This document shows, piece by piece, positions 32,131 to 64,000 of a DNA stretch of 64,000 nucleotides; within the stretch, counting starts at the first letter, position 1, and each line of letters opens with the position of its first letter. Origin of the DNA: a virus (lineage: Duplodnaviria; Caudoviricetes). Both the position numbers and the translations under genes were made by a program. The stretch is from the IMG/VR virus record IMGVR_UViG_3300022602_000004, positions 1,537 to 65,536 of that record. One strand, given 5' to 3'. The notes below the pieces were generated by a model. The model made no database searches. It was not told where the DNA came from and saw only the letters and a list, made by a program, of their open reading frames with translations.

Positions 32131-32140
32131 TTAGGACTCC

Positions 32141-32752: not shown

Positions 32753-32760
32753 AATTACTC

Positions 32761-34474: not shown

Positions 34475-34475
34475 A

Positions 34476-34787: not shown

Positions 34788-34797
34788 GTTAATACTC

Positions 34798-35226: not shown

Positions 35227-35228
35227 GG

Positions 35229-42833: not shown

Positions 42834-43374
42834 TTTAGGTTGTGGGGGCAACATCTTTCCGGGGTATGTCAACGTAGGTTTTGAAGATGGTAAAGAAGAC
42901 TCTGAGTTGTATATGAATTGCGACTTAAGTAAGGATTTTCCATTTAAAGACGTAGACGTTATTTACAACTGCCATTTTTTAGAACATTTAAGTTATTACG
43001 ACGGGATTGAGTTTTTACGTAAGTGTTACGCAGCCATGAATGATGGGGCAGTTATGCGCATTGTGGTTCCTGATTTGGCTTTGTGGTGTTTGAAATATTT
43101 ACAGCATGATAGGGCGTTTTTGGATGCATATCGCAACGCTTATCTTGGTCCTGACTATCCTACAGACGGTTCAATCTTTATGGGTATGCTACACAATCAT
43201 GGGCATAAGATGGGTTGGGATTATGAAACGCTATACTTTTTACTAACATGGTGTGGGTTTAAAGAAGTAAAACAAACTAAATATCGTGAAAGTTGTCTAA
43301 CAGATATTGATATGTTAGAGCCAGTTAATCCTGGTAGGGAACTAGAAAGCCTTTGCGTAGAGTGTTATAAATAA
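42811..43374 (+). CDS. SAM-dependent methyltransferase (type 11-like)
   Basis: KLNLGCG, HFLEHL, MRIVVPD. Confidence 0.85.
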   Translation: MANMTKLNLGCGGNIFPGYVNVGFEDGKEDSELYMNCDLSKDFPFKDVDVIYNCHFLEHLSYYDGIEFLRKCYAAMNDGAVMRIVVPDLALWCLKYLQHDRAFLDAYRNAYLGPDYPTDGSIFMGMLHNHGHKMGWDYETLYFLLTWCGFKEVKQTKYRESCLTDIDMLEPVNPGRELESLCVECYK

Positions 43375-47068: not shown

Positions 47069-47258
47069 CGGAGTTCTCCATAGTTTTATTAAGGTCAGTT
47101 ATAAAGTTTCGTGCGGCAAAGAGACCTTTTACTTCTCCGCATACTTTTTTGTAGTCTTCAATCGTCTTACAGTTGTCGTCTGCTAAGCTTTCTTGAAGTT
47201 GCAAAATCCGTTCATCTAGTTGTCGTACTATATGACTTAAAGCCTGGTGGGCATCCAT
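47061..47258 (-). CDS. Small head-module protein
   Basis: YKKVCGEVKGL motif; between portal and GroES. Confidence 0.7.
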   Translation of the reverse strand: MDAHQALSHIVRQLDERILQLQESLADDNCKTIEDYKKVCGEVKGLFAARNFITDLNKTMENSDE

Positions 47259-49822: not shown

Positions 49823-51343
49823 TTAATAATAGGCTGCTTTTTTGCGATATTTGTAAAGTATATCGTCATCAGGTTCGTCACTTGGCAGACGAATAAATCC
49901 GCCCTGCCTGAATCTTAACAGAGCTAGCGTAGTTGAGTCTACTAAGTCATCATTTAGACCACTAGGAAAGTCATTACATTCCTCAATTACATCCTTCGCC
50001 CAGCGGTGCGATGGCGCCCAGACGACCCCTCCCGAGAACAGATCGCTAATAGCATTAACTCGAGAGATTTTGTCTTGACCTTTGCCAGGTGTGAACTCCT
50101 GCGCTGGTATACCCATACGTCTGAACTCTTGATAGAGTGCCGCCCCATTGGACTTCTTTTCAACCATAAACGCATCCGGTTGCCATTCTTTATATTCTTC
50201 GAGACAAAGTTTCTTAAGTTCCGGAAACTCCAGCCGCTTTTTGATCGCATTAAGTAGGATGATGTTGTAATTGTTGACCTCTTCGTTAAAGAAGACGCCC
50301 CACGTTGTGAGCGCATTAAAGTCCGCACGGTTGTTTGCCTCCTGAGCCGCGTCTAGCGACATGATAATAAATTCACACTGCGGTGGCTGTTCCTTGTCCC
50401 AGATGTTCCACCACTCCCTTTTAATTAAAGCGCCTTCTTCAGATACTGGATTTTGCATATACTGAGCATTCCAATACCTAATGTCAAGCGCCGCTTTCTT
50501 AGCTAACAACTCCTCTACGGGCCAGAACTCAGGCCAAAGGCTTTCGCCATCATCTTTAATAGCAGGAAACTCAATAACTTCCCAAGGGTCAACCTCGTCG
50601 TTATTCTCTAGCTGTTTTATGATCTGTCCGGTTAAGTCAAGTTTAGACCACCGCGTCATCACAACAATGATCGCACCACCCGGCATAAGGCGCTGAAGAG
50701 GCCCAGACTGGAACCACTCCCAAGCAGGAAGAAAAACGTCTGGTCGTCCTGTTTTGGCGTCTTGCTCAGAATGTGGATCGTCAATAATGAACAAATCAGC
50801 GCCCCTACCAGCGAGAGCACCTCCAACACCAATAGCAAAGTATTCACCATTAAAATTTGTTCCCCAACGCGAAGCCGATTTACTGTCAGCTTGTAATTCT
50901 ACCTGCGGAAATATTGTTTTATAGTTGTCTGAACCAACAAGGTTCCTAACACGACGTCCAAAGTTAACAGCCAAATCCGCTGTGTGAGACGCCATGATGA
51001 TTTTTTTCTGAGGATACTTACCCAAGAACCAGGCAGGAGCGAGATAGGATATAAGTTCTGACTTACCATGACGCGGAGCGATATTAACAATGACTCGTTT
51101 TTTCTTACCGTTAGCAATATCTTCAAAAATTTGAGCCAGTTTAAGATGGTGCGGTCCGACTTTATAGCCCGGGTATACGTGTTTAACAAAGTCCAAAAAG
51201 GATACTTTGCCTCGTTCTTGGGTGAGAAATTCGTCATATTTTTCTAATAAATCCTTAGTTTTCCGCTTAATTTGCTCTGGAGTTTTGGGGTTTTGGACCA
51301 ATAATCGCAGCTTAAATAGCTGTTCCTGAGACAATTTATGCAT
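49823..51343 (-). CDS. terL: Terminase large subunit
   Basis: IAPRHGKSEL, FIIDD, VMTRW, SLDAA, DDLVDS. Confidence 0.93.
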   Translation of the reverse strand: MHKLSQEQLFKLRLLVQNPKTPEQIKRKTKDLLEKYDEFLTQERGKVSFLDFVKHVYPGYKVGPHHLKLAQIFEDIANGKKKRVIVNIAPRHGKSELISYLAPAWFLGKYPQKKIIMASHTADLAVNFGRRVRNLVGSDNYKTIFPQVELQADSKSASRWGTNFNGEYFAIGVGGALAGRGADLFIIDDPHSEQDAKTGRPDVFLPAWEWFQSGPLQRLMPGGAIIVVMTRWSKLDLTGQIIKQLENNDEVDPWEVIEFPAIKDDGESLWPEFWPVEELLAKKAALDIRYWNAQYMQNPVSEEGALIKREWWNIWDKEQPPQCEFIIMSLDAAQEANNRADFNALTTWGVFFNEEVNNYNIILLNAIKKRLEFPELKKLCLEEYKEWQPDAFMVEKKSNGAALYQEFRRMGIPAQEFTPGKGQDKISRVNAISDLFSGGVVWAPSHRWAKDVIEECNDFPSGLNDDLVDSTTLALLRFRQGGFIRLPSDEPDDDILYKYRKKAAYY

Positions 51344-51905
51344 CTTTTTCGTCTTTTTCTGTGATGTTTTTAGCTTCTACATCAATATATTTACCCTCAA
51401 CATCATCTAAAAGGGTCAATAACTCAGCCTCAACCTCTTCCATAGACTGGATTTTGACTGTAACTTCGCTTCTTTTCTTGAACGCATCGACTCCATCAAC
51501 CTCACCAAGCACCCGCAGAGCTGCAACTTTGGTCTTTACATCCTTGGCAGCCTCTACAGAATGCACTAAGTTGTTGACTACATAGGTTTTTAGGTCGGAT
51601 AACTCATCTACGATGCTCACATTCATCTGGGCTACCATGCCAGCTAACATAGCAAGAGTCTCGTTGGGGTACTGATTAAACTCTGGGCGGAACTTGGGGT
51701 CACTTGCCATCTGCACGGCTAGCTTTTTAGCGTCGTCAACGTTACCTTTGTTGGGTGAGATGGGTTGTCCGCTTAGTTCAGACATTAAAGCCACTACGTT
51801 TGCCCGCATGTTTAACTCTTCTTGGGGCGTGAGTTCAGGAAATGCTTCGGTAGCATTCTTTGGTAGGGGGATGTTACTCTCGATTTCTGGAATATACGCG
51901 TCCAT
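51336..51905 (-). CDS. Putative terminase small subunit
   Basis: Directly upstream of terL; ALRVLGEVDGVDAF helix motif. Confidence 0.6.
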   Translation of the reverse strand: MDAYIPEIESNIPLPKNATEAFPELTPQEELNMRANVVALMSELSGQPISPNKGNVDDAKKLAVQMASDPKFRPEFNQYPNETLAMLAGMVAQMNVSIVDELSDLKTYVVNNLVHSVEAAKDVKTKVAALRVLGEVDGVDAFKKRSEVTVKIQSMEEVEAELLTLLDDVEGKYIDVEAKNITEKDEKDA

Positions 51906-51911
51906 GCGCGA

Positions 51912-51940
51912 AGTATATAAGGGTTTTAACTATGTGTAAA
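51912..51940 (-). promoter_or_regulatory. Sigma70-type promoter, leaderless, for the terminase operon
   Basis: TTTACA-N17-TATACT-N6-ATG on the minus strand, no SD. Confidence 0.65.
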
Positions 51941-52041
51941 GAGTTTCTTTACAGAAAAAGAATGGGGCGACGGCTAAAAATGCGCATCTTTAATTCTACG
52001 GAAACCCCTAAAAACACACCCTCACGTGTATGAGTAATATG

Positions 52042-52416
52042 TTACACCTTTTTCTTTTTACGCCGAACCTTTTTCTTTTCCTCTCGTTCTTCGTGATGAT
52101 GAATGCGATGGCAATTGGCGCATAGGGGTATGCACTTTTTAATTTCTTCTTTAGCTTTTTTGTAATTACCTAATTGAGCTAGGCGGTTTACTGAGTGGTA
52201 ATCTGTTCTATCTACGTGGTGAAAGTCTAGTGCTGCTGGATGAGAGAACCCACACATCGTACATTTAAATGTACTCTTAAATGCATACCACTCTTCACGC
52301 TTGTCGCGTTTTAATTTAGCCGCCCTAGCTTTTACTTCTACTTGATTAGCTAGGTAATGCTTACGGCTGTACTCCTTGTGTTTGTTTTTTCTTACGTTCG
52401 CGTCTTTGTACGGCAT
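52042..52416 (-). CDS. HNH endonuclease
   Basis: CTMCG...LDFHH...KCIPLCANCHRIHH; probable start MPYKD at 52416. Confidence 0.85.
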   Translation of the reverse strand: MPYKDANVRKNKHKEYSRKHYLANQVEVKARAAKLKRDKREEWYAFKSTFKCTMCGFSHPAALDFHHVDRTDYHSVNRLAQLGNYKKAKEEIKKCIPLCANCHRIHHHEEREEKKKVRRKKKKV

Positions 52417-52849
52417 CGGGATGAACCTTATATCTCCAGTAGATAGCGTTTTTAAAAGACCACTTGTTGGCAGGAGTATATATCTTAAATCCACAAGATA
52501 TCAAAGAGTTTGATGATGCGGGGTTATTTGTTGTATCAGTGATGAGCCAATTCCAACCTAACTTCTTAGCTTGTGCTTGTCGTACTTTGATTAATCTTTT
52601 CTGTAATCCTTTGCCTGTGTACTCATACATCACACCTGCTCTACATAAGTAACCTGTATCGTTCCAAGCAATCGACCGAACAAGACCAGCAAATCCCACG
52701 GGCTTGCCATCCTCTGTATATACGATCCACCAATGCCCACGATCTGGTTTGTAGATAGAGTCGCTCGGCAGGATTTTCTTTTGTAAGTAACATAGCATCG
52801 TAACGTTAGCAGGTTCGCGTAGATCAACTTTTCGGACAAAGAACTTCAT
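52361..52849 (-). CDS. GNAT-family acetyltransferase
   Basis: RAGVMYEYTGKGLQKRLI, NPASSNSLISCGF; RBS AGGAG. Confidence 0.85.
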   Translation of the reverse strand: MKFFVRKVDLREPANVTMLCYLQKKILPSDSIYKPDRGHWWIVYTEDGKPVGFAGLVRSIAWNDTGYLCRAGVMYEYTGKGLQKRLIKVRQAQAKKLGWNWLITDTTNNPASSNSLISCGFKIYTPANKWSFKNAIYWRYKVHPDAVQRRERKKKQTQGVQP

Positions 52850-53096
52850 AGCAACTCCTAAGAATTTTTAAATATTATCCCCCATATATGACAGTTTTGG
52901 GTCCCCTTGACGGGGGGTGTTTCTGTATAAATGTAAAGTTATGGATAGGCGCAATTTAGGTCAGGGGTGTGGCGTTTTTTATTTTTATATTCAATAAGTT
53001 AGGTCAATAATGGAGTCGTCTGAGTTTGGAAATTTAGTGGAGTTATTTGTGTAGATCAAAGGGTATAGGGCACGGATGGAACCAATCTAGGAATCA

Positions 53097-53126
53097 GGGG
53101 GGTGGGGGGTCGGGATTGGGGGCGGG
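53097..53126 (+). other. G-quadruplex-forming tract at the late/early boundary
   Basis: G6-T-G6-TC-G3-ATT-G5-C-G3. Confidence 0.7.
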
Positions 53127-53167
53127 AAACTTGACATATGCCAGCGCTTGGTATAGAACTGTAATCA
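53125..53167 (+). promoter_or_regulatory. Early promoter, class 1, copy 1
   Basis: GGAAAC-TTGACA-N17-TAGAAC-TGTAATCA followed by a 5' hairpin. Confidence 0.7.
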
Positions 53168-53203
53168 CTGACACGGTGTCAGTATTAACTAAAGGAGAAG
53201 GCA

Positions 53204-53413
53204 ATGTATAAACTATTCTATACAACCAACATGAAGCAAGTAGATACAGGAGATGTAGTTCACTTCGCTAACAGGGCTTGGACAGTAGAAGGCATAGATG
53301 AATCAGCCAAGTATCTAGAGACTAGGGTTTGGGTTCGGTCGATGGATGAACAACACCTATGCATCAGCGCATCACCTAATGACTTCGGTGCGCGATTTAT
53401 TCTAACTAAGTAA
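53204..53413 (+). CDS. Early hypothetical protein
   Basis: Own promoter and RBS AAGGAGAAG. Confidence 0.75.
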   Translation: MYKLFYTTNMKQVDTGDVVHFANRAWTVEGIDESAKYLETRVWVRSMDEQHLCISASPNDFGARFILTK

Positions 53414-53439
53414 CACTCGGTCCCTGCGAAAGCAGGGAT

Positions 53440-53461
53440 TGAAACCAGTTACTTGTTGTCG
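53440..53461 (+). repeat. 22-bp direct repeat, copy 1 (TGAAACCAGTTACTTGTTGTCG)
   Basis: Identical to 54276-54297; follows a GAAA hairpin at 53419-53440. Confidence 0.9.
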
Positions 53462-53505
53462 GGCGCGTCTATGCGAGTGCGTTATTTAGTGTGCCATTCT
53501 TGCGT

Positions 53506-53548
53506 GGAAACTTGACTAATGAGCTTGTGTCGCGTAGAACTGTAATCA
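53506..53548 (+). promoter_or_regulatory. Early promoter, class 1, copy 2
   Basis: GGAAAC-TTGACT-N17-TAGAAC-TGTAATCA. Confidence 0.7.
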
Positions 53549-53604
53549 GCCAAGCAATTCCGCTTGGTCTATGTAGTATTTCATTTTATGAAAGGTAATA
53601 CAAA

Positions 53605-54222
53605 ATGGCTAAAAACCAAAACCTAGCAGTAGATTTAATCGCCTCCCTCAAAGACGGAGCTTACAAACAAGCCTCAGCTAATGACCGCATTGTATCGGTT
53701 GCGAAGTATGTAATCGAAAAGGTCAAGGGCTTTCCTGAGGCTTTGCCTGATGAGGCTAAGGCTGAGTTAGTCGAGGGTTATCGTCTACGCTTTAATGAGA
53801 ATAACCCTGCTATTCAGTATGTCATTGTTAATGACCACTACTTGTTAGCTAGCGACTGCCCTGATGTAAAAGAGGGGTTTGTTAATATCGGGGTAGATTA
53901 TGCCTACTCATTCAGCCAACAGCAGTTTGGCAAGCTCAAGAATGAGAACCCCTACTTGTATGACATTATCAAGCCTTTGCGTGATAAGTGTTCTACCTAT
54001 TGCAGTAATCGTATCAACGACCTAAAGCGTCAAGCTCGGGCTTTGCTCAAGACTGATACTAAGGGTAATCGTGGTGCAACTCTTGATTTTGGACAACGCT
54101 TAGTCAAGGTCTTTGATGACCTCGAGGCTAAGTGCAAGGTAGCCAAAGAAAGAGGTGATACAACGGCTGATCTAGTCAAGTATCGCAAAGCAGTCGAGGC
54201 TTTTAACAAGGCTTGGGCTTAA
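53605..54222 (+). CDS. Early hypothetical protein (205 aa)
   Basis: Monocistronic: own promoter, RBS AAGG, terminator. Confidence 0.8.
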   Translation: MAKNQNLAVDLIASLKDGAYKQASANDRIVSVAKYVIEKVKGFPEALPDEAKAELVEGYRLRFNENNPAIQYVIVNDHYLLASDCPDVKEGFVNIGVDYAYSFSQQQFGKLKNENPYLYDIIKPLRDKCSTYCSNRINDLKRQARALLKTDTKGNRGATLDFGQRLVKVFDDLEAKCKVAKERGDTTADLVKYRKAVEAFNKAWA

Positions 54223-54231
54223 GTAGTATCG

Positions 54232-54263
54232 AGGGACAGGGCTTCGGCTCTGTCCCTTTTTTT
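54232..54263 (+). terminator. Intrinsic terminator
   Basis: AGGGACAGGGC-TTCG-GCTCTGTCCCT plus T-run. Confidence 0.85.
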
Positions 54264-54275
54264 GTGCCTTGAAAA

Positions 54276-54297
54276 TGAAACCAGTTACTTGTTGTCG
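54276..54297 (+). repeat. 22-bp direct repeat, copy 2
   Basis: Identical to 53440-53461. Confidence 0.9.
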
Positions 54298-54450
54298 CGT
54301 GCGTGAGTGCGTGTGTTAAATATCTCATAGCCCATGTGCCAGCGCAAGGTCATTGATTAGTGTTCCACGGGATAGTGGAATCTGCCCTGTATCATTTAGA
54401 ATTCTAAGAACTGATGCGACAATATCAGCCAACGCTAAGTTATTACAAAA

Positions 54451-54844
54451 AATTCCAAGTTTAGAATCGGGGGTTCTGAGTTCCGCAGAAAAATTCCAAG
54501 TGGTTTGGAATTTAATTTGTTTTATAAATCATGGACTTACACAGGAAATTCCAAAATTCCAAGTTTTTTAGAAATAGGCTAGGGGGTAAAGAGTTATTTT
54601 AGAAAAGTTGTGTCAGCAAGAAGTCTTTTTTCCCGATGTATTTTAGTAAAGCAGAAAACACTCGCAAGGTATTGTTACCTCAAAAAAACTTGGAATTTTG
54701 GAATTTTTCTTATTCTTCTTCTTTTTTAATTTAATAAATAATATATATAACAAGGACTTATAGCATTTTTTACCCCGAAAATTAAATTCCAAAACCATTT
54801 TTAAACTTGGAATTTTTCTTGGAATTTTTTACAAACTTGGAATT
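54451..54844. repeat. Iteron-like array (11 x AATTCCAA/TTGGAATT) with a 24-bp inverted repeat; putative replication origin
   Basis: Forward copies at 54451, 54492, 54547, 54555, 54785; reverse copies at 54505, 54690, 54698, 54807, 54819, 54837; AT-rich core. Confidence 0.75.
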
Positions 54845-54884
54845 TTTTTGGTCTACCCTCGCCTAAAAAAGTTATCCACTAAGA

Positions 54885-54913
54885 TTGTGTTAAAGGTAAA
54901 GTTATACTATAAT
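54885..54913 (+). promoter_or_regulatory. Early promoter, class 2, copy 1
   Basis: TTGTGT-N17 (contains GTAAAGTT)-TATAAT. Confidence 0.65.
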
Positions 54914-55027
54914 TATAGTGTTGGTTGGCGAGAAAATAAGACGGCAACATAGTCCCCTCACCCACCAGCATTACTTAGCGTTCCACGATGTAGTGGAATT
55001 TGATTGTAGTTTTTATCGGAGATTGGC

Positions 55028-55210
55028 ATGAATACTTATCTGATTCACTTTGATGGTAAGCAGTATGAAGTAGTTGGGAAAGATGTTTATAGCACTAAGG
55101 TGGCTTTCGTTAATAAGTTCAATATCCCAAAGCGTAAGCAGTCGTTAGTATCAATTAACCTTTGTAAGAAGGCAGACCAAGTAGTAGTTCATTCAACCGC
55201 ATCACTATAA
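55028..55210 (+). CDS. Early hypothetical protein
   Basis: RBS GGAG; first gene after the promoter. Confidence 0.65.
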   Translation: MNTYLIHFDGKQYEVVGKDVYSTKVAFVNKFNIPKRKQSLVSINLCKKADQVVVHSTASL

Positions 55211-55220
55211 GGAGTAAAAC

Positions 55221-55421
55221 ATGGGCAAACTTAAAAACCTTATTATCGAGAACGAGGAAGCGTTCAATCGCATCTTCAAAGCCAAGCAACAAATTACCGA
55301 CCCACGAGATAGTGGACTCGAACCTACTGATGAAGACTTAGCTAGATACGAAGCTGAGTTCGCAGACTGGTTGGATATGTATGAGAAGTCTTTTGGTGAC
55401 GAGAAGGGATACCTACCATGA
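55221..55421 (+). CDS. Early hypothetical protein with acidic C-terminus
   Basis: RBS AAGGAG. Confidence 0.7.
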   Translation: MGKLKNLIIENEEAFNRIFKAKQQITDPRDSGLEPTDEDLARYEAEFADWLDMYEKSFGDEKGYLP

Positions 55422-55636
55422 TTGATGAAACTTTTACCCCACAGTGTAAGCTATGCGGTGATGTATATGACTCGAAGCGCTTAGCGTTGGGCTATGCGGT
55501 GTGCTGTGAGTGTGGCGACGAGATAGCACGAAAGCTAAACACCAAGCGCACGATAGTCCCGATGAACAAGTCGAACTATCAATTAGTCACAGACATGACC
55601 ATTCTCAAACAGTTAAACCCCAAGAGGACATCATGA
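55418..55636 (+). CDS. Zn-finger protein
   Basis: CKLCG...RLALGYAVCCECG; PMNKSNY. Confidence 0.75.
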   Translation: MIDETFTPQCKLCGDVYDSKRLALGYAVCCECGDEIARKLNTKRTIVPMNKSNYQLVTDMTILKQLNPKRTS

Positions 55637-55800
55637 ATGAGCTAATGAAAAGGCGCATGGAGTTTTCCAAGCTATACCAAGAGAACCAAGCTAATCAGAA
55701 AGTGTTTGATTGGATGGTTGAAAGCCTAACTAACAATGCGCTGGCAAAAGAAACCACCAAGAAGTTGGGCGCATATAACAGGAGAGAATATCGTGGATGA
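55633..55800 (+). CDS. Early hypothetical protein
   Basis: Start MNELMK at 55633 with GAGG; ATGA overlap. Confidence 0.6.
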   Translation: MNELMKRRMEFSKLYQENQANQKVFDWMVESLTNNALAKETTKKLGAYNRREYRG

Positions 55801-55966
55801 AGCGGAAAAAAATAGCCTTTCATACAATGCTCAGATGGCATGGGATAGATATGCAAAAGAGCATGAGTCCAAGCTAGACGATCTAACCGATGATCAATTC
55901 TTCATGTTGGGCGATGCTTTTGTTGATGGATACATGCAAGCCATAGGAGATATTTATGGGATATAG
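55793..55966 (+). CDS. Early acidic hypothetical protein
   Basis: GTG start after AGGAG. Confidence 0.55.
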   Translation: MDEAEKNSLSYNAQMAWDRYAKEHESKLDDLTDDQFFMLGDAFVDGYMQAIGDIYGI

Positions 55967-56387
55967 GTCTAGTGTTGCATACACAATTAGATTCACACCC
56001 GATAGCGGTGATATGACGCAAGAGAAATTAAAAGGTGCGTTCGCAGTCTTTCTCGAAGAAGCTACGGCTAATGAAGATACTAAGCTATGTTTCACCCAAG
56101 AAGAAGCTAGAGAGTTCATAAAAGTGGACAGGGAAGGATGCGCCATCAATTTCTTTGCTAGTGATGTGAAGTGGTATGAAGACTATACCGATGTGAAGTG
56201 CCATATAGCTTTACTTGAAATGGTAGAAGATTGGTTAGCTGAAGATAACCCTCACTCAAAGTATCTAGGTTATATCTTTGTGCGTATCGGTGAAAGTCCT
56301 GACGACATTATTGAAGAATGTGGTGGTAATTACGACTGGGACTGGCTAAGTGTGTCTCGCTCGATTAACTGTGACTGGTTCAATTAA
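55956..56387 (+). CDS. Conserved phage early protein
   Basis: MGYRS.V, VKWY, FVRIGE..DD; RBS AGGAG. Confidence 0.75.
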   Translation: MGYRSSVAYTIRFTPDSGDMTQEKLKGAFAVFLEEATANEDTKLCFTQEEAREFIKVDREGCAINFFASDVKWYEDYTDVKCHIALLEMVEDWLAEDNPHSKYLGYIFVRIGESPDDIIEECGGNYDWDWLSVSRSINCDWFN

Positions 56388-56405
56388 AAATCTCATGTAT
56401 CACTC

Positions 56406-56434
56406 TTGTGTTATATGTAAAGTTGTAGTATACT
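56406..56434 (+). promoter_or_regulatory. Early promoter, class 2, copy 2
   Basis: TTGTGT-N17 (contains GTAAAGTT)-TATACT. Confidence 0.65.
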
Positions 56435-56459
56435 TATAGAATGAAGAAAGGAGAAGTAT

Positions 56460-56543
56460 ATGCACTGGTTCAAGTTGGTATGTATTTTGATTTGGTTGTA
56501 TTTAGTAATCCACTTAGTAGTGGACTTTAATTTAATTAAGTAA
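56460..56543 (+). CDS. 27-aa hydrophobic peptide MHWFKLVCILIWLYLVIHLVVDFNLIK (not in ORF track)
   Basis: Preceded by AAGGAGAAGT; stop abuts the next RBS. Confidence 0.55.
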   Translation: MHWFKLVCILIWLYLVIHLVVDFNLIK

Positions 56544-56556
56544 AGGAGAAGTTGTT

Positions 56557-57471
56557 ATGAATGAACTAAAAATGCCTGAGCATTTAATCTCATTGGCGAG
56601 TAGTGCGGTGTTAATCAGCGTAGATATTTCTGTGTGGTCAGCAACGAAACAGGACAGAGGTATCAGCGATGAAGTTACTACGGCAAAGAACGCTGATAAA
56701 AGCGCGGGTCGGTATGTTAAGAATCTATTAGCTAATCACCCCTCGCATAAGGCAGTCGTGAACTATCGTCAAACCATCTATAACTGGCTTCAGCGTCGGA
56801 CTTATCGGTGGAATCAAAGCCAGCAGTTATTACCTAGTATTGATATGCCCAAGTTTAAGCAAGAGTATCACGAGCATCAAGTAGCGTTCCACGCATTAGT
56901 GGATTCGTTAATAGATAACTACGATTCAATCGTATCGGATATGGCTTTCAAACAAGGTGATATGTTTAACCGCAGTGACTATCCAACCAAAGAGCAAGTT
57001 GCATCTAAATTTAGTTTAAATCTGTATGTATCAGAAGTCCCGACCAATGACTTTCGTTGTGGTATAGCCCAAGATATTGCAGAGGACTTGTTCAACAACC
57101 TATCTTCACAAACTAAAACAATCATAGACAACATAGCTAGTGACCAAGCGCAACGGCTTGTCGATGTAATGGAGTCCATTACTCATTGTTGTGGTGTTGA
57201 TGAGATTGATTTGGAGAATGGCGAGGTGCGGACTAAGCGTCGCAAGATATACGACACGACGATACAGAAAGCATTAGAAATGTGCGAAAGTTTTAAGCGA
57301 TTTAATCTTAAGAATGATTCAGGATTAGAGCAAGCTCGTGCATCGCTAGAGAAAGTCTTGCGTGGTGTATCAGCAGAGGACATTCGTGATTCAGATGCAG
57401 TCCGTCATCATGTCAAAGAAGGTATTGATGACATTCTTAGTAAGTTCGGTAGTTTCAGTTCCATTGTCTAG
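56557..57471 (+). CDS. DUF3150-like protein
   Basis: LISVDISVWSATKQD N-terminus; upstream of an AAA/vWA pair. Confidence 0.55.
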   Translation: MNELKMPEHLISLASSAVLISVDISVWSATKQDRGISDEVTTAKNADKSAGRYVKNLLANHPSHKAVVNYRQTIYNWLQRRTYRWNQSQQLLPSIDMPKFKQEYHEHQVAFHALVDSLIDNYDSIVSDMAFKQGDMFNRSDYPTKEQVASKFSLNLYVSEVPTNDFRCGIAQDIAEDLFNNLSSQTKTIIDNIASDQAQRLVDVMESITHCCGVDEIDLENGEVRTKRRKIYDTTIQKALEMCESFKRFNLKNDSGLEQARASLEKVLRGVSAEDIRDSDAVRHHVKEGIDDILSKFGSFSSIV

Positions 57472-57554
57472 TGGATTCATAGGTAGTGCATGCACTAATA
57501 GACCAAGAGTGCATTTTTCAGTAGTTTATATTTTTAACCAAAGGAGAAGTAAAC

Positions 57555-58631
57555 ATGGCAACAAAAATCAATATGGTTCAAACAGTATCTATCAAGGAAT
57601 TGCGTAAAACCATTCCGCTAATAGGCTCATCACTCACACCAATCATACAGAGTGAACCTGGTTGTGGTAAGACCTCTCTCTTATCTATGATGCGTGAGGA
57701 TTTGGGAGAAGGTTATGACTATATCTATGTGGACTGTCCCGTAAAAGATATGTCCGACATCGGTATGACTATTCCCAACCATGCAACCAAGACTCTCGAA
57801 TACTATGTGAGTTCCCTATTCAAACTAGATAGTCCGAAACCTAAAGTCATTCTGCTCGACGAGTTCATGAAGTCACCCAAGTTATTGCAAGTAATCTTTA
57901 CTCGCTTGATGTTGGAAAGAATGGTAGGTGATGTTCCACTACCTAGTGGGTCGATAGTTTTCGGCACAAGTAACAATGCGTCAGACGGCGTTGGTGATAC
58001 GATGCTTGCTCATGCTGGTAATCGTGTGTGCATTATGCGTATGGCAAAACCAACACCGAACGAATGGTTGGAGTGGGCATCAGCTAATGGTATTTCTCGT
58101 GTTGTTCGTGCGTTCGTGGCATTGTTCCCTCGCACCCTCGCTTCATATACTGAGGGCAACCAAGAGGACAACCCATATATCTTTAAACCAAGCATGACTA
58201 GTTTATCTTTCTGCTCACCTCGTTCGCTTGCCAAGTGTGATGTCATTGTTAAGAATCGGGACATACTAGGTGAGAACGCTACGGCGGTGGCATTGGCTGG
58301 CACGATCGGTGCTAGTGCGTCTGCGGATATGAGTGCGTTCCTATCGCTAGAGAAAACCCTTCTTGATGTGAAAGACATTATCAAATCACCAGATAGCATT
58401 AAAGTTCCCGAAGAAGTATCAGCACAGTTAATGATTATGTTCCAAGCAGTCGATGTTCTAGAAACGCAAGACGAGTTGACTAAGTTCATGTCATTCGTCA
58501 ATAAGATTCCTAGTTCAGAAGTTCAATCAGTATTCTTTACCATGATGATGCGTAATAGTAAGTCCATCAAACTTGCTCGCAATAATATGCAGATTGCAGA
58601 GTGGGCTAAGAATAATCACGAGTTGTTTTAA
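57555..58631 (+). CDS. MoxR/dynein-related AAA+ ATPase
   Basis: EPGCGKTS, ILLDE, GTSN, NR, SPRS. Confidence 0.85.
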   Translation: MATKINMVQTVSIKELRKTIPLIGSSLTPIIQSEPGCGKTSLLSMMREDLGEGYDYIYVDCPVKDMSDIGMTIPNHATKTLEYYVSSLFKLDSPKPKVILLDEFMKSPKLLQVIFTRLMLERMVGDVPLPSGSIVFGTSNNASDGVGDTMLAHAGNRVCIMRMAKPTPNEWLEWASANGISRVVRAFVALFPRTLASYTEGNQEDNPYIFKPSMTSLSFCSPRSLAKCDVIVKNRDILGENATAVALAGTIGASASADMSAFLSLEKTLLDVKDIIKSPDSIKVPEEVSAQLMIMFQAVDVLETQDELTKFMSFVNKIPSSEVQSVFFTMMMRNSKSIKLARNNMQIAEWAKNNHELF

Positions 58632-58650
58632 TTAACCAAAGGAGAAGTGC

Positions 58651-58857
58651 ATGACACTAGAAATAACTTATAGCGAAATGTTTTTAATTATGTGGGCGGT
58701 GGGTATGACCCTCATGTATTTAATTACTAGGTCTAATGCGGAAGACTTTAGAAAGCACACCCTCGCCAAGCTGATGCAAGTATATAAAGGTGAAGCGAGG
58801 ATTGTCTTTGAAGAAACCGATGAAGGCTACCATATATCAATCGTAAACAAGGAGTAA
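58651..58857 (+). CDS. Small membrane protein
   Basis: N-terminal TM helix; RBS AAGGAGAAGT. Confidence 0.65.
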   Translation: MTLEITYSEMFLIMWAVGMTLMYLITRSNAEDFRKHTLAKLMQVYKGEARIVFEETDEGYHISIVNKE

Positions 58858-58860
58858 TAA

Positions 58861-60153
58861 ATGATTGCAAATAACAGACAGGAAGTCCGCTTGAAGAAAG
58901 CGCATATTGCCCTGATGAAACACCCTGAGACTGCGTTGTATTCGGGAGTGATGCTCATGGGTAAGTCAGAGGTAAGCGACGAGATGTTTACAGCATATAC
59001 AGATGGTGTGAATAAGAGATACTCTAAGCCATTCCTCGAGACAATCAGTAGTGAATCTAAGTTGCGTGGCTTAGTGTTGCATGAGAATCTTCATGTGGCA
59101 TTAAAGCAAATCCCTCGTGGTAAGGATATGTTCAAGGAAGATTCTAAGATTGCAAACATGGCGGCGGATTTTGTAGTCAATGACATTATCGCTAACATCA
59201 AAGGAACAGTAAGCGGTGGAAATGAATCTATCGTGACCTTGCCCGAAGGTGCGTTGTATGACCCTTTCTTTCATAACTGGAATATGCGTGAGATATATAA
59301 CTATATCCGTAAAGAGAATCCTCAACGACAAAAACAATCAGGTGGCTCATCAGATGAATCTAACAGTCCATCAGAGAGTGGAACGCAAGGTAGCGGTGGT
59401 GATAACAAGATCAAAGCTAACGGCAAAGAGTATGACATGGGCGGTAGCGGATTCGATGAGCATGATTGGGAAAGCTATATCGAAGGACTATCAGACGAAG
59501 AACGCAAAGACTTGGGTGACAAGATAGACAGAGCGTTGCGTGAAGGTGGTATGTTGGCTGGTCGCATGGGCGGTAAGATGCCACGAGCAATCGGTGAACT
59601 ACTTGAACCCAAGATTGACTGGCGGGAAGCGTTGCGTGACTTTGTAGCATCGAGCATGAAAGGCAAAGATGAATTTACTTGGCGACGCATGAACAAGCGA
59701 CACATGGCTAATGACATCTATATGCCAAGCATGGAGAATGAAACTATCGGCGAGGTCATCGTAGCTATTGATACATCGGGGTCGATTGGTGGCAAAGAAC
59801 TTACAGAGTTTGCGACAGAACTGGCTTCAATCTGTGACCTAGCGTCGCCTGATGTGGTAAGAATTATATGGTGGGATGCTGATGTGCATGGTGAGCAAGT
59901 ATTCAAACCTGACCAATATCAGAACATCGCATCGCTATTAAAACCATTAGGCGGTGGTGGCACTAGGGTATCGTGCGTAAGCAAATACATCAATGAGAAG
60001 AAACTTAGCGCAGAAGCAGTCATCGTGTTTACCGACGGCTATGTTGAACATGACATTGAATGGAATATCGTTCCACCTACCCTGTGGATGATTACTCAGA
60101 ATCGAAACCTTGATGTGCCTGTCGGTAAAAAGGTTATGTTCGGAGATAACTAA
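58861..60153 (+). CDS. DUF2201-like metallopeptidase-vWA protein
   Basis: TAYTDG, LHENLH (HExxH), IDTSGS MIDAS, GGGT, FTDG. Confidence 0.88.
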   Translation: MIANNRQEVRLKKAHIALMKHPETALYSGVMLMGKSEVSDEMFTAYTDGVNKRYSKPFLETISSESKLRGLVLHENLHVALKQIPRGKDMFKEDSKIANMAADFVVNDIIANIKGTVSGGNESIVTLPEGALYDPFFHNWNMREIYNYIRKENPQRQKQSGGSSDESNSPSESGTQGSGGDNKIKANGKEYDMGGSGFDEHDWESYIEGLSDEERKDLGDKIDRALREGGMLAGRMGGKMPRAIGELLEPKIDWREALRDFVASSMKGKDEFTWRRMNKRHMANDIYMPSMENETIGEVIVAIDTSGSIGGKELTEFATELASICDLASPDVVRIIWWDADVHGEQVFKPDQYQNIASLLKPLGGGGTRVSCVSKYINEKKLSAEAVIVFTDGYVEHDIEWNIVPPTLWMITQNRNLDVPVGKKVMFGDN

Positions 60154-60344
60154 TGGGTGACGGCGGACTAGCTAGAATCAGAAACGACTTAGTAAATGAA
60201 CTAATAAAACATTATGGGAAAGGAGCGTATACATGTGCAGTAGAAAGAATGTCTGCCTATGAGGGCGATGAACTCATGATAGATATGTGGCGAAAAGTAG
60301 TAGAAGAAATTGATGAACATTTTAAACAAGGAGAAGTGAAATGA
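60153..60344 (+). CDS. Early hypothetical protein
   Basis: Coupled ORF, RBS GGAG. Confidence 0.6.
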   Translation: MGDGGLARIRNDLVNELIKHYGKGAYTCAVERMSAYEGDELMIDMWRKVVEEIDEHFKQGEVK

Positions 60345-61354
60345 AAGCATTAGAATGGGATAGACTTACTAACATCAGTAAGACAGTAAAGCCTTATCGT
60401 GGGACTACAAATCGTTTTCCTATCGACAAGAGAACTCACAATACAAAGTGTTTCTATGTTGAAGAACGCAACGGCGAGCAAGTGTATGTGATTACCTACG
60501 GCTTTAGACACAACGAGCATTACCATACGAAAGCAGAGTATGAAGCAAACCCATCTAGGATTCATCACAGACAATGGGAAGAAGACGAAACTAAAAAGTA
60601 TGTAACCTACTCACCTGTGCCTAGAGAGTTGGGCATAGTGCGTTCCGACAATACCTTTGAGTTTACTGCGCCTTACTATGGGCAAGGAGATAATCAGATC
60701 ATGAGTATGTGGAGTCGTGGTTACTTTTCTAGGAGTTCACGACATGGTGGAATGGTATATGGCGAAAGAGGTAGTCTTTTTCATCCGATCTTTAAAGGTA
60801 TGCGATTAAACTGCAACACCATGATGCCAGCAGAAGGTAGCGAATACAAAGTTGTTGGTAAGCGAGTCAGTCGTAAAGATGCTAAAGAGTTTCTTAGCGG
60901 ATACGATGATTTCTACAAGGTCAATGAGGTTATGTTCAAAGCGATGGAATATAAAAACTTTATGGATACTGTCGCCGATGTTGCTGAACAAGTTAATGCA
61001 AAATTTGACTCGTGGTGTTTAGATTCTGATGTAAGGAGAAACCTATACAAGTTCTTTGAAGATAACAAAGATACTGCGCCGTTGGATGCGTGTTGTGCGT
61101 TCGTTCTTGCTGATGATATACAGAGTATGTATCGTCGTGTGCGAGAGCATGTAAAACAACAAGCAAGCTATCGCATGGAAGACTTAGAGTTGCAGAATTT
61201 ATTTGACAATGTCAAGCGCAGACTCAACAAAGAGTTGTATCGTAAAAATCCACAATGTATGAAACTAACAGAGTATACCCCCTATCAGTATTACGCACCT
61301 AGCGAGTGGGGTGTTGAAGTGTATGTTAATGGTAACGAAGTTGAACAATACTAA
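60341..61354 (+). CDS. Early hypothetical protein (337 aa)
   Basis: Long ORF, RBS AAGGAGAAGT. Confidence 0.8.
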   Translation: MKALEWDRLTNISKTVKPYRGTTNRFPIDKRTHNTKCFYVEERNGEQVYVITYGFRHNEHYHTKAEYEANPSRIHHRQWEEDETKKYVTYSPVPRELGIVRSDNTFEFTAPYYGQGDNQIMSMWSRGYFSRSSRHGGMVYGERGSLFHPIFKGMRLNCNTMMPAEGSEYKVVGKRVSRKDAKEFLSGYDDFYKVNEVMFKAMEYKNFMDTVADVAEQVNAKFDSWCLDSDVRRNLYKFFEDNKDTAPLDACCAFVLADDIQSMYRRVREHVKQQASYRMEDLELQNLFDNVKRRLNKELYRKNPQCMKLTEYTPYQYYAPSEWGVEVYVNGNEVEQY

Positions 61355-61364
61355 GGAGAAGTAA

Positions 61365-62303
61365 ATGAGCTATATCGTAGATGGTTTTAAGACCGAAGAA
61401 CTGGCTTCAAAAATAGATGCGTCACCATGTAAGAAACTAATACAAGAACTGAACTTCAAGTATGGACTCAAGGTGATTGACTCTAGACCACTTCAAAACT
61501 GGGGTGCGGATAATGTAGAGTTTTATTTAACCGAATCGACTGGTGCTTTTGTTGCTGGTCGTGTGTGGACATACAAGGAAGATGGAAACATTATCTATAA
61601 CTTTCGCACACCATTCTACCGAAAGGACAGAGGGTCGGACAATGCAGATAGAGAAACAATCCATAGCAAGAAACTTTCTACATTGATGGCTACATTAAAA
61701 CGGCAAGATGTTGTTCCATCATTGGGTGGAATGTTAAAGAGTCGGCATCAAGATTCTTTTGAGAACGCAGTCAACAGTCTAGAATCTCATCATGGTAATA
61801 CTTATAAGCGTGTCGAGTTAGAACCCGATGAACTTCATGCGTTGTTGCGTAAAGCCATCATAGGTGTAAATACTAGTAACCTAGATATAAATAAATGTAA
61901 AGAACTTCTTGACAAATACGATAAGATAGATAGAATCAAAGATGAAAGAGCTAAGGATGTTGAAAGATTTTTTGGCGGTGGCTTTCATGCGGTAGGCGCA
62001 GACAAGCTAGGTCATTTAGTCATCGGCACTCTAAAGCGTATTGACTCTAGTAAGTATGAAATTATCAATCCATTCAAGCGTGTAAAGGATTTATCAGAGC
62101 ATGAGGAATTACAACCAATTATGCTAATGCAAAAAACAATTTTCCAAGATAGATTTACGACAGGCGAGACAGGCAAGCTACATTCAAACTATGTGCCAGT
62201 ATCTAATCAATATATGGCAGACCTTGATATTGCCTACTGTGCGGTGCGTGGTATTGATTACTTTGACCTTGCTTGGATTCTTGTCCCATGCTCGACAAAC
62301 TAA
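61365..62303 (+). CDS. Early hypothetical protein (312 aa)
   Basis: Long ORF, RBS AAGGAGAAGT. Confidence 0.8.
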   Translation: MSYIVDGFKTEELASKIDASPCKKLIQELNFKYGLKVIDSRPLQNWGADNVEFYLTESTGAFVAGRVWTYKEDGNIIYNFRTPFYRKDRGSDNADRETIHSKKLSTLMATLKRQDVVPSLGGMLKSRHQDSFENAVNSLESHHGNTYKRVELEPDELHALLRKAIIGVNTSNLDINKCKELLDKYDKIDRIKDERAKDVERFFGGGFHAVGADKLGHLVIGTLKRIDSSKYEIINPFKRVKDLSEHEELQPIMLMQKTIFQDRFTTGETGKLHSNYVPVSNQYMADLDIAYCAVRGIDYFDLAWILVPCSTN

Positions 62304-62623
62304 GCCCAATCGTGCATCAATATAACTGGGACTTGTATCGTGTGCCTTTGCGTAAGGTAGGAAATAAATACACGATGTATGTGGCTGATGGATTTACTCG
62401 GGAATTTGATGAACATACATTACCCGATGAAGTCAAAACCAAGATGGCTATGATACTGTCAAGGCATGGAATTATAGAACGAGACGAGCAATTAACCCCG
62501 TTAGCGTTGATGGAAACAGTAAGAGATTCAGAGTTGCAAGAGATAGGGTGGCGAGCAAGCGACAGTTATTTTATTGTAGTGTTACCTTATTCGTCGTTAA
62601 TGAAACTAAAAGGAGAAGCGTGA
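62288..62623 (+). CDS. Early hypothetical protein
   Basis: ORF overlapping both neighbours; start uncertain (62273 or 62288). Confidence 0.65.
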   Translation: MLDKLSPIVHQYNWDLYRVPLRKVGNKYTMYVADGFTREFDEHTLPDEVKTKMAMILSRHGIIERDEQLTPLALMETVRDSELQEIGWRASDSYFIVVLPYSSLMKLKGEA

Positions 62624-62910
62624 TGGCACAAACCCCCGAAGGGAAAGTGAAGGATAAGGTTAAGAAGATACTCAAAGAGCAAAACATATACTATGTGATG
62701 CCAGCGACAGGCGGTTATGGTAGTAGCGGTGCGCCTGATTTCCTAGTGTGTCATAAAGGAAAGTTTTTTGGTATAGAGTGTAAAGCTGGAGATAACCAAC
62801 CGACTGCGTTGCAAACTGACAACATGAACTGGCTTGAAGATAACGGCGGAACTGCTATTGTCGTAAATGAGAATACAGTTATGCCTTACATGGAGTTGTA
62901 TTTTAAATAA
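62623..62910 (+). CDS. VRR-NUC domain nuclease (resolvase-like)
   Basis: TPEGKVK, GAPDF, IECKA, PTALQ, GG.AIVVN; start follows AAGGAGAAG. Confidence 0.88.
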   Translation: MAQTPEGKVKDKVKKILKEQNIYYVMPATGGYGSSGAPDFLVCHKGKFFGIECKAGDNQPTALQTDNMNWLEDNGGTAIVVNENTVMPYMELYFK

Positions 62911-62922
62911 AGGAGAAGTGAA

Positions 62923-63129
62923 ATGAGATTATATCCACGCAGGTATCAAGTAGTAGAACCAGTAGTAAAAGAACCTGAGAAACCAAAGCTAACCGATAAA
63001 GGTTCTAAGTTTGTTTGGACTAAAGGCGCTGATGTTATGAAGACTTTTAGACGACATGGATTTGTCCCGCCATCAGAGTATCGCAACGACTACTTGTTCA
63101 AAAAGAATCGAGAACTAACCAATGAATGA
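62923..63129 (+). CDS. Hypothetical protein
   Basis: RBS AAGGAGAAGT; DVMKTFRRHGFVPPSE. Confidence 0.7.
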   Translation: MRLYPRRYQVVEPVVKEPEKPKLTDKGSKFVWTKGADVMKTFRRHGFVPPSEYRNDYLFKKNRELTNE

Positions 63130-63310
63130 GAATGATTTACGAGATTGTTTTGCGATGATGCTAACTGTTGGTTTTGCCATGAAAGGTGAAATAAACCCAA
63201 AAGCAATATGGGAAATAGCAGATATGATCGTTGAAGCAAGAAAACCGCCCGACATGGGCATAACCGCAGTAAAACCTAAAAGGAGAAGTAAAGATGGCAA
63301 AGCAAGCTGA
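63122..63310 (+). CDS. Hypothetical protein
   Basis: LRDCFAM...AWEIAD-type phage motif (IWEIADMIVEAR). Confidence 0.65.
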   Translation: MNENDLRDCFAMMLTVGFAMKGEINPKAIWEIADMIVEARKPPDMGITAVKPKRRSKDGKAS

Positions 63311-63512
63311 CAATGTAAACAGTCCAGCACACTACACTACTGGTGGAATTGAAACCATAGACTTTATCGAAGCGAAAAACTTAGGTTATAACTTAGGTAA
63401 TGTCGTCAAATATGTTTCTAGGGCACACTACAAAGGTAGAAAGATTGAAGACTTAAAGAAAGCTGAGTGGTATCTAAAGCGTGAGATAGCTATACTAGAG
63501 AAACTATCATGA
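63294..63512 (+). CDS. DUF3310 (T7 gp1.7 / SaV-like) protein
   Basis: DNVNSPAHY, IETIDFI, GNVVKYVSR, EDLKKAEWYL. Confidence 0.88.
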   Translation: MAKQADNVNSPAHYTTGGIETIDFIEAKNLGYNLGNVVKYVSRAHYKGRKIEDLKKAEWYLKREIAILEKLS

Positions 63513-63751
63513 ACAATGAACCAGTAGCATGGAAAGCATACGATGAAGTGCATTTTAGTGACCAATACATCTTGCGTTGGGTGCGTGAAGGTGACGAGTA
63601 TGTAAACCGTATTGGCAAAGAGATGATGGAAGACTTGCATACCGTAGTGCGTCAGCAAAAAGCTGAAATAGAATTATTAAATGCAAAGCTGGCTTATATG
63701 TTTGAGCAAGAGATTAAAAGTGCAATACTAAGAAAGGCACAAGAGAAATGA
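63509..63751 (+). CDS. Hypothetical protein (EPVAW...RQQKAEIE family)
   Basis: ATGA-coupled ORF. Confidence 0.7.
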   Translation: MNNEPVAWKAYDEVHFSDQYILRWVREGDEYVNRIGKEMMEDLHTVVRQQKAEIELLNAKLAYMFEQEIKSAILRKAQEK

Positions 63752-64000
63752 ATGCAAAACAAATAGCTGATGAATTGGAAAACATTTATTGGATACAGGG
63801 CGATGGAAAAGGCAAACCATTTCAGCAATATGCAGACTTTGTACGCCAGCAACAAGCTGAAATAGAGGAGTTAAAAACCTGTTTAATTGTCGAACAGGAA
63901 CACAACGAGCTTATGGTAGAAGACCGAAGCAAGTACGAAGCACTAGCACACGCTGGTGGTGTTGAAGTGGGTAAAGAACTAAAGACACTAACAGATGAGG
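63748..64000 (+). CDS. Hypothetical protein, partial (RQQQAEIE family)
   Basis: MNAKQIADELE...; runs off the window end. Confidence 0.6.
   Translation, partial: MNAKQIADELENIYWIQGDGKGKPFQQYADFVRQQQAEIEELKTCLIVEQEHNELMVEDRSKYEALAHAGGVEVGKELKTLTDE

Follow-up and report, generated by a model that had tools for sequence, protein, structure and literature searches.

A one-sided zone without several short Type II-like palindromes in the early region of an uncultured freshwater phage and its relatives

The early region of an uncultured freshwater phage genome was found to lack at least five short palindromic words, and the loss sets in abruptly at one position and fades in one direction only. The window analyzed here is a stretch of 64,000 nt, bases 1537-65536 of the 65,536-nt virus record IMGVR_UViG_3300022602_000004 (Duplodnaviria; Caudoviricetes). 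The record begins and ends with the same 122 nt, which gives a 65,414-nt circular map, and the window covers nearly the whole genome. The terminase operon and the early operon diverge from a non-coding gap (about 52850-53127 on the open reading frame (ORF) map), which forms the sharp left edge of the site-free zone. The early gene block, with ~20 ORFs mostly of unknown function, lies on the plus strand at 53047-64000 and continues to window-equivalent 64104, in coordinates that carry the window's numbering past its end. The identification of this part of the genome as an early region, made in the initial annotation, was borne out: repeated promoter-like elements are followed by small ORFs of unknown function, which precede the replication genes and point away from the terminase operon. 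We consider it probable that host Type II restriction has selected on the DNA that enters the cell first, with a fixed end of the virion genome at the gap, as in T7 and T5.

The initial annotation had reported from inspection by eye that ACGT, CCGG, GGCC and GCWGC are absent from 52850-64000. Exact counting confirmed this, as the region holds 0 of the window's 144 ACGT sites, 0 of its 94 CCGG sites, 0 of its 36 GGCC sites and 0 of its 135 GCWGC sites, and the landmark sites named at that time were also correct (ACGT at 398 and 52803, GGCC at 462, CCGG at 5564 and 5568). Regional k-mer counts against a Markov model, set beforehand as the test, showed the depletion, which is stronger than had been stated. 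For the arc 52850-64790 the order-1 Markov expectation is 37.3 for ACGT, 37.1 for GTAC, 20.1 for GGCC, 17.7 for GCWGC and 15.9 for CCGG, a range of 16-37 per word. The Poisson P for the five words under this expectation runs from 6e-17 to 1e-7; maximal-order Markov expectations are lower, yet still 9-34. The original word list was right and also incomplete, having overlooked GTAC, GCNGC, GATC, CCNGG and CGCG. Only 2 of the window's 187 GTAC sites are in the zone, at 63841 and 63933, and GCNGC has a single site there, at 59161. GATC was observed 9 times vs 38.6 expected, CCNGG once vs 17.7 and CGCG 6 times vs 19.0, and GGNCC and CASTG were likewise strongly reduced. We take ACGT, GTAC, CCGG, GGCC and GCWGC to be the target words of MaeII, RsaI, HpaII, HaeIII and TseI, respectively.

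The borders of the zone differ slightly from word to word. The last sites on its left are ACGT at 52803, GCWGC at 52232, CCGG at 51169 and GGCC at 50700. On the circle, the site-free arcs measure 13,009 nt for ACGT, 13,621 nt for CCGG, 15,176 nt for GGCC, 12,756 nt for GCWGC and 11,222 nt for GTAC. All of these arcs overlap, starting at 50700-52803 and ending between 63841 and window-equivalent 65876. The zone therefore continues beyond the end of the window; its strictly empty part stops between 63841 and 64790, and the site-free zone amounts to 17% of the genome.

Composition and coding were ruled out as causes by the Markov and synonymous-shuffle controls. The G+C content of the zone (0.40-0.44) matches that of the rest of the genome. 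When the synonymous codons of the early ORFs were shuffled 300 times with proteins and codon usage preserved, the expectation was 30.7 +/- 4.1 for ACGT (minimum 18), 26.7 for GTAC, 32.6 for GATC, 8.0 for CCGG and 7.0 for GGCC; for GCWGC it was 4.2 with a minimum of 0, so GCWGC alone is weak under codon control. General palindrome avoidance was also rejected, because TCGA (34 observed/35.9 expected), GCGC (25/24.1), CATG (61/51.6), AGCT (47/49.1) and CTAG (47/38.5) are at expectation in the zone. Among the 136 strand-symmetric 4-mer classes, the six most depleted all fall within the 16 palindromes (P = 1e-6). GGCC and CCWGG are low genome-wide too, with 36 GGCC sites vs 141 expected outside the block. 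The genome gave no match to PF00145, PF01555 or PF02086, which represent C5, N4/N6 and Dam-type methyltransferases, and 10 relatives gave none to PF00145. As the genome has no methyltransferase of these types, self-methylation of late DNA is not the explanation.

The structural block has some voids of its own. There is no CGCG over 15.9 kb (19580-35459), where ~19 would be expected from the 77 CGCG in 65.4 kb, and TCGA is missing over 9.4 kb (7327-16776) and 11.7 kb (18616-30315). The observed-to-expected (O/E) ratio of CpG in these voids is merely mildly low, at 0.68-0.81.

To obtain the shape of the depletion along the genome, the five words were counted in consecutive 2-kb bins that start at 52850 and follow early transcription. 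The O/E ratio was 0 in each of the first five bins, followed by 0.18, 0.33, 0.54, 0.55, 0.60, 0.74 and 0.75. It was ~1 over the remaining 40 kb, structural genes included, and 0.87 in the final bin abutting the gap. The profile is a sawtooth, with a sudden drop at the gap, ~11 kb without sites and a slow recovery over about 12-14 kb. The replication block as a whole contains 78 sites vs 132.9 expected (P = 2e-7). Left of the gap, full site density returns after 47 nt, which is ~320 nt away from the first early promoter-like element. The 10-kb terminase flank has observed/expected counts of 39/30.3 for ACGT, 37/30.0 for GTAC, 28/22.7 for GCWGC and 14/16.4 for CCGG. This one-sidedness fits a linear virion genome whose leading end lies at the gap and whose terminase end comes last.

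The pattern is shared by relatives of the phage. These were collected through the DUF2201 protein of the early block (313 relatives in IMG/VR), and 80 loci, denoted here by the prefix L, were fetched. Synteny is kept, with the terminase on one strand, then the gap, then the early proteins, the ATPase, the DUF2201 protein, the endonuclease and PolA on the other strand. In L009, the identities are 92% for the large terminase (TerL), 80-83% for the early proteins and 85% for PolA; such conservation of gene order and identity across the zone border indicates that the block was not imported recently. Both borders are present in 17 distinct relatives; in these, short palindromes are depleted in the early block but not in the terminase flank, and the words vary. 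For example, L009 and L012 have no CCGG, GGCC, GCWGC or CGCG and retain ACGT and GTAC. In L035, the early block has 2 ACGT sites against 43.0 expected and 1 GATC site against 42.8, vs 12 against 8.2 and 9 against 11.0 in its flank. L062 is without seven words (ACGT, CCGG, CGCG, GATC, GGCC, TCGA and GCWGC), and up to nine palindromes are missing in relatives. A depleted core was present in 23 of 23 distinct loci, with lineage-specific word sets. The longest strictly site-free run was discarded as a measure of the border in relatives, being not robust to occasional leak sites. The missing words behave like host Type II targets: only certain palindromes are involved, and the set depends on the lineage within the same syntenic block.

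These word sets also bear on whether the missing words are the targets of an early nuclease of the phage itself that degrades host DNA. A hypothesis of this type has been published for the A1 protein of T5 (10.1101/866236), and the early block does hold an endonuclease-like protein (phrog_93) as well as the DUF2201 protein, labelled HNH endonuclease in some records. However, the missing palindromes are unrelated and number five or more here and as many as nine in relatives, which exceeds what one nuclease would account for. Phages with 56-77% identity in their endonuclease-like proteins also have different sets, and the same words abound in late phage DNA. We regard an own nuclease as a very improbable cause.

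Pooled profiles of the family reproduced the sawtooth. For the 23 loci, the words of each locus were chosen on the 3-9 kb core alone, and the border is approximate. The pooled O/E ratio was 0.78-0.80 in the 3 kb on the terminase side, fell to 0.53, 0.36 and 0.17 in the first three kb past the border, reached 0.07 at 9-10 kb, and climbed to 0.57 by 18 kb. A set of ten genomes was then made up with nine further whole records, complete or near-complete. Words were picked from the bins at 3-9 kb and >24 kb, so that 0-3 and 9-24 kb are free of selection. The pooled O/E ratios in 3-kb bins from the gap were 0.26, 0.06, 0.02, 0.10, 0.35, 0.54, 0.60, 0.67, 0.98, 1.09 ... 1.14, and the one-sided sawtooth was present in 10 of 10 genomes.

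This one-sidedness argues against an explanation in which the whole genome enters at once and each region is selected by its time of need until restriction is neutralized, late cuts being tolerated or repaired. The depth of depletion does track the presumed order of expression (early > replication > structural), and the genome encodes a PD-(D/E)XK exonuclease and helicases, which would allow repair of late DNA by phage exonuclease and recombination. However, sites are back at full density 47 nt to the left of the gap, where a cut would immediately lay the early operon open to exonucleases. Entry all at once therefore predicts a two-sided trough, whereas the trough is one-sided in every one of the ten genomes. 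Such an origin of the pattern is distinctly unlikely in our view. Somewhat more credible, although still unlikely, is a T5-like two-step transfer, in which a block of 11-12 kb enters and stops, and the rest follows once early proteins have been made. The right edge of the zero zone is discrete and close to a terminator-like hairpin, the block makes up 17% of the genome, and an inverted-repeat array at 54400-54900 recalls the repeat-rich injection stop region described for T5 (10.1101/866236). Against these points, a strict two-step model predicts a step, whereas the window, with O/E rising from 0.18 to 0.75 over 12 kb, and the pooled family both show a ramp, and no long terminal repeat was seen, the sole terminal identity being the 122-nt overlap. 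Because of the ramp, a progressive, T7-like geometry of entry, possibly driven by transcription and with protection increasing meanwhile, is favored over the two-step, T5-like one.

Avoidance also appears to be maintained between closely related strains. L002-L004, at 97-98% nucleotide identity, show 250 distinct substitutions relative to the window in 52850-63500. If these were independent and neutral, 12.4 forbidden words would be expected to arise, and 1 real site was found (P = 6e-5), although the independence assumption is violated because the substitutions are clustered. The first count had given 7 site-creating substitutions; 6 of them are not real sites, since neighboring bases also differ, and in one case an A>G change that would create GTAC is accompanied by a C>T change two bases on. 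The sole real new site in the homologous parts of the three strains is a GCAGC in L004. No part of the genome varies more than the early block. A deletion variant joining 53139 to 53530, in which the cassette between the promoter-like elements is gone, occurs in contigs of 3 of 4 metagenome runs, and a 4.1-kb deletion from 53413 to 57536, with 26 nt in its place, occurs in 2 of 4 runs.

Such variability, with the deletion variants and a replaced cassette in L004, would be expected if the early block had been imported from a phage with another host history and had inherited its word usage, and the TCG and CGA trinucleotide usage of the block is indeed unlike that of the late genes. However, throughout the family the block matches its surroundings in synteny and in level of divergence. 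A trough is present in 23 of 23 loci, each lineage having its own words, strains 2-3% apart continue to avoid the words, and the ramp reaches into conserved replication genes. We therefore give very little credence to mosaicism as the source of the pattern.

Several sequence elements in the early block may be related to its expression. Two copies of a promoter-like element lie on the plus strand at 53128-53166 and 53509-53547. The element, which corresponds to repeat families D13 and D14, reads TTGACA, 17 nt, TAGAAC and then a conserved TGTAATC. A search with the 39-nt pattern, in which 21 bases are specified, gave 2 exact matches in the window and none in 100 shuffles. A general promoter scan was not enriched, with 22 found vs 30.3 expected. 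At the other end, a terminator-like hairpin with a 13-bp stem and a T-run is located directly before PolA (L001 344-373, equal to window-equivalent 64222-64251). It is kept in close relatives, where the stem sequences are clade-specific and the TTTTTGTAT tail is constant (L003 5509-5538, L008 8853-8882, L009 14827-14856, L013 10722-10751, L016 8201-8228 and L019 12340-12369). The clade with ~62% identity has a second conserved hairpin, GGCATGG TTCG CCATGCC, in place of the hairpin before PolA.

Further repeats were observed in and near the block. The array at 54400-54900 comprises ~500 nt of non-coding, AT-rich DNA with at least 8 copies of AAAATTCCAAGTTT-like 14-mers, arranged in two inverted clusters that flank an AT-only core. 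Its sequence resembles an origin of replication or an array of operators, and the short ORFs called within it are probably spurious. An intergenic hairpin (TTCCAC, 6 nt, GTGGAA, with conserved flanks) occurs in five copies between early genes, at 54356-54382, 54974-55000, 55293-55319, 56501-56527 and 56880-56906; these hairpins may be sites of RNA processing, attenuation or regulator binding. G runs (GGGGGGTGGGGGGTCGGGATTGGGGGCGGG) directly precede the first promoter-like element, and the gap contains a G/C hairpin (53095-53125 and 52898-52920).

Taken together, these results are best accommodated by host Type II restriction acting on the first-entering DNA. The early region of a virulent, uncultured freshwater phage would have been purged of the Type II target words of its host population because this block is exposed in the cell before any phage protein exists. 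In the first step, the packaged genome would have a fixed end at the gap, at ~52850-53130, and that end would enter first. Host RNA polymerase would then start at the two promoter-like elements (53128 and 53509), which resemble sigma-70 promoters, and transcribe rightward through the ~11 kb of early genes, stopping at the hairpin at 64222-64251. One or more of the early proteins would next blunt restriction. DNA arriving later would be under progressively weaker selection, leading to the ramp through the replication genes, and the structural genes would show no avoidance, being the last to enter even though they adjoin the gap on the circle. The initial interpretation, that this end enters first and encodes anti-restriction functions and that the missing words reveal host restriction-modification (R-M) specificities, is thus supported in part: the early character of the region, the Type II-like words and a one-sided sawtooth of the form that polar entry predicts all stand in its favor.

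Several observations weigh against this explanation. First, no molecule start or end could be placed in the four runs, all of which consist of contigs, as do the 24 listed runs, and a circularly permuted, headful-packaged genome, which is conceivable on these data, would make a fixed leading end impossible. Second, the crude terminator scan of all relatives gave a modest enrichment, 16/49 vs 33/186 control windows. Third, TCGA shows the reverse pattern, with 34/35.9 expected in the early block and 33/99.5 elsewhere; its low number elsewhere is only partly explained by the rarity of TCG/CGA in late genes (maximal-order expectation 52.3), and CpG re-housing in the early block also accounts for the pattern only in part. 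Fourth, a replacement cassette of ~560 nt behind the first promoter of L004 (3722-4282) contains 2 ACGT, 4 GTAC and 1 GGCC; it may be a recent acquisition, or the strain may live with other hosts. Fifth, the distant phage Pag-Yong1, with the same layout, shows genome-wide avoidance only and no regional pattern (GANTC 0/314 expected, GTAC 0/50 expected). Finally, no matches to Ocr (PF08684 at E <= 0.1), ArdA or ArdB/KlcA were obtained in the genome, and AlphaFold models of a 143-aa and a 205-aa early protein gave no Foldseek match at E <= 0.001 and no informative one.

Pag-Yong1 shares the divergent layout, and a protein within its early block is annotated as an S-adenosylmethionine (SAM) lyase. 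Its record (OL906435; L082, L083) has a G+C content of 68.9%. Together with the complete lack of GANTC and GTAC, this value would be odd for a phage of Planktothrix (~40% G+C); a host that has a GANTC methylase or R-M system would fit better.

Candidate physical ends were also considered in the records and read sets. The 'direct terminal repeats' of the records were rejected as physical ends because they are overlaps of 91-127 nt at 8 different map positions; judging from their sizes, they look like assembler word sizes. Contigs at 53.4-54.5 kb reach ~1.5-2x the depth of their neighbors in four runs, and this was rejected as a sign of a terminal repeat since summed-contig depth cannot be read so. 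The segment 63429-64000, which contains the DUF3310 gene and its neighbors, has a summed contig depth of 850-1500 vs 10-90 elsewhere in four lake metagenomes, with many alternative joints, and occurs in numerous other abundant genomes. It also contains the ends of the record itself and the first GTAC sites.

The proteins of the early block offered few leads to function. In the Pfam/PHROG scan of 20 early-block ORFs, 16 had no significant match, and the four with one were the ATPase, the DUF2201 protein, the endonuclease-like protein and the DUF3310 protein. The AAA+ ATPase (57555-58631, plus strand) matches phrog_1297 at 6e-51, its AAA Pfam matches being weak and under the cut-off. The DUF2201 protein (58861-60153, plus strand) has putative metallopeptidase and VWA-like domains (PF13203 at 4.7e-26, PF09967 at 1.4e-15). 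Many 72-80 kb phages of enterobacteria, Acinetobacter and Vibrio have homologues with 25-29% identity, which frequently carry an incorrect HNH endonuclease label. The small endonuclease-like protein (62548-62910, plus strand) matches phrog_93 at 1.9e-14, and the DUF3310 protein (63294-63512, plus strand), close to the right edge of the zone, matches PF11753 at 1.6e-21. The 304-aa protein at 56557-57471 on the plus strand is conserved across the family by synteny and has no Pfam or PHROG match; a language-model search (Atlas score 0.97) led to clusters in which 12-18% of the members carry DUF3150, which is a lead only. A conserved trio thus occupies 56557-60153, consisting of this DUF3150-like protein (by that lead), the AAA+ ATPase and the DUF2201 VWA/metallopeptidase protein. 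For the early proteins, Atlas returned unnamed viral clusters plus the DUF3150 lead and nothing more. The most acidic early protein, of 143 aa and with an isoelectric point of 4.3, was modeled by AlphaFold as a double ferredoxin-like fold with a pLDDT of 90, and the conserved 205-aa protein reached a pLDDT of 87. The best VIA Z for the folded early proteins was 5.8, to generic ferredoxin-like folds, and the phage SAM lyase 6zm9 had a Z of 4.9.

A bolder form of the favored explanation takes the sawtooth, in a widespread lake phage family with no relation to T7 or T5, as a quantitative record of genome entry, which would be slow, start from a fixed end at the gap and probably be pulled by host RNA polymerase, and places a new, broad Type II inhibitor among the unannotated early proteins. 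This inhibitor would act while the replication genes come in, and the DUF3150-like protein, the ATPase and the VWA-metallopeptidase protein would be among the conserved early set. We put this forward tentatively and consider it doubtful as a whole. If true, it would mean that entry polarity, entry timing and the host R-M repertoire can be read from sequence alone for uncultured phages. With regard to RNA polymerases of the phage itself, there was no match to the single-subunit family PF00940 here, but control genomes gave none either, and no RNA polymerase annotation was present among the 52 distinct ORFs scanned against Pfam or PHROGs.

Plus-strand genes run past the end of the record from the early block to PolA and on to the replication genes, finishing at ~9339; the replication block (1-9339, plus strand) includes the end of PolA, the PD-(D/E)XK exonuclease, an SNF2 helicase and a DUF927 primase-helicase. 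The virion and packaging genes are on the minus strand at 9336-52849. The terminase-side flank (49823-52849) codes for TerL (49823-51343), a 189-aa ORF and a GNAT acetyltransferase (52361-52849), and the portal (47258-49813) and the major head protein (43419-44321) are further along the same strand. A plus-strand island of four genes at 39834-43374, inside the minus-strand block and against the surrounding virion genes, codes for a 516-aa TPR protein, two unknown proteins and a family-25 glycosyltransferase. The virion block ends with a minus-strand gene (9336-15875) for a 2179-aa protein whose sole Pfam domain is the large polyvalent protein domain LPD38; its counterpart in Pag-Yong1 is annotated as a large polyvalent protein. 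It was rejected as an N4- or crAss-type virion RNA polymerase, as no sequence match in the PDB was obtained at E <= 1. Proteins of this kind are presumed to enter the cell along with the DNA and might contribute to protection.

The closest GenBank phages by TerL, with 44-51% identity, are the lake phage DSL-LC04, the Pelagibacter phages HTVC027P and HTVC023P, and the 65-kb Pag-Yong1. Megablast of the early block against GenBank phages gave a 53-nt match only. The tested stretch is present in 21 of the 24 listed runs, from 19 studies. Host assignment from genome bins was rejected, since the 9 matches carried labels from Rhodocyclaceae to archaeon and Kaiserbacteria and look like mis-binned phage contigs.

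Our results probably extend the principle of restriction acting on first-injected DNA from T5, T7-type phages and, since 2025, Murciavirus to an abundant uncultured freshwater family. The case is unusually clean, with at least five words of 4-5 bp absent over 11-13 kb and a monotonic ramp, and the word sets turn over between relatives at ~80% protein identity. In uncultured phages, the leading end and the type of packaging would be predictable from the position of the trough, the sets of missing words would serve as testable fingerprints for host prediction, and the conserved early genes of unknown function provide a defined place to seek new anti-restriction functions. Whole-genome avoidance statistics understate R-M pressure. 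This agrees with the Discussion of a study of Murciavirus, in which whole-genome statistics are stated to dilute or miss sub-genomic avoidance (PMC12455610).

Comparable systems are known. Sites are reported to matter only in the first-injected region in T5 (10.1101/866236) and in Murciavirus, where this region is hypervariable (PMC12455610). Like the putative leading part of this genome, the first-step transfer (FST) segment of T5 is site-free over the leading ~8-17% of the genome, and the rest has sites yet is unrestricted (EcoRI in T5); the pre-early genes of the FST segment are thought to neutralize restriction, as these same sources put it (10.1101/866236; PMC12455610). In contrast to T5, no long terminal repeat was seen here, the profile is a ramp rather than a step, and many 4-bp words are missing instead of one 6-bp word. 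The two phages are also unrelated, TerL being at most ~51% identical to that of any GenBank phage, with best matches in lake and Pelagibacter podophages. The likeness to T7 and Murciavirus (Autographiviridae; NAR 2025), judged from sequence features, would lie in early genes at one end, clustered host-type promoter-like elements and a terminator-like closure, and the early region is hypervariable here too, with deletions and the L004 cassette. The differences are that Ocr was not found in this genome, which at 65 kb has another architecture than T7, and that the avoided words are Type II-like palindromes of 4-5 bp, whereas those of Murciavirus form a bipartite Type I motif. Leading regions of conjugative plasmids are depleted of R-M targets and enriched in anti-defense genes, according to work cited in the Murciavirus study (PMC12455610); plasmids, however, enter single-stranded by conjugation, and the present genome is that of a tailed phage with terminase, portal and capsid genes. 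As in genome-wide avoidance by phages, short palindromes are lost, but here the loss is mostly sub-genomic and polar. No description of the pattern for this phage family was found in the titles and abstracts listed by literature searches. The phenomenon itself is already known; what appears to be new is that it occurs in an uncultured freshwater group, in so clean a form and across the whole family.

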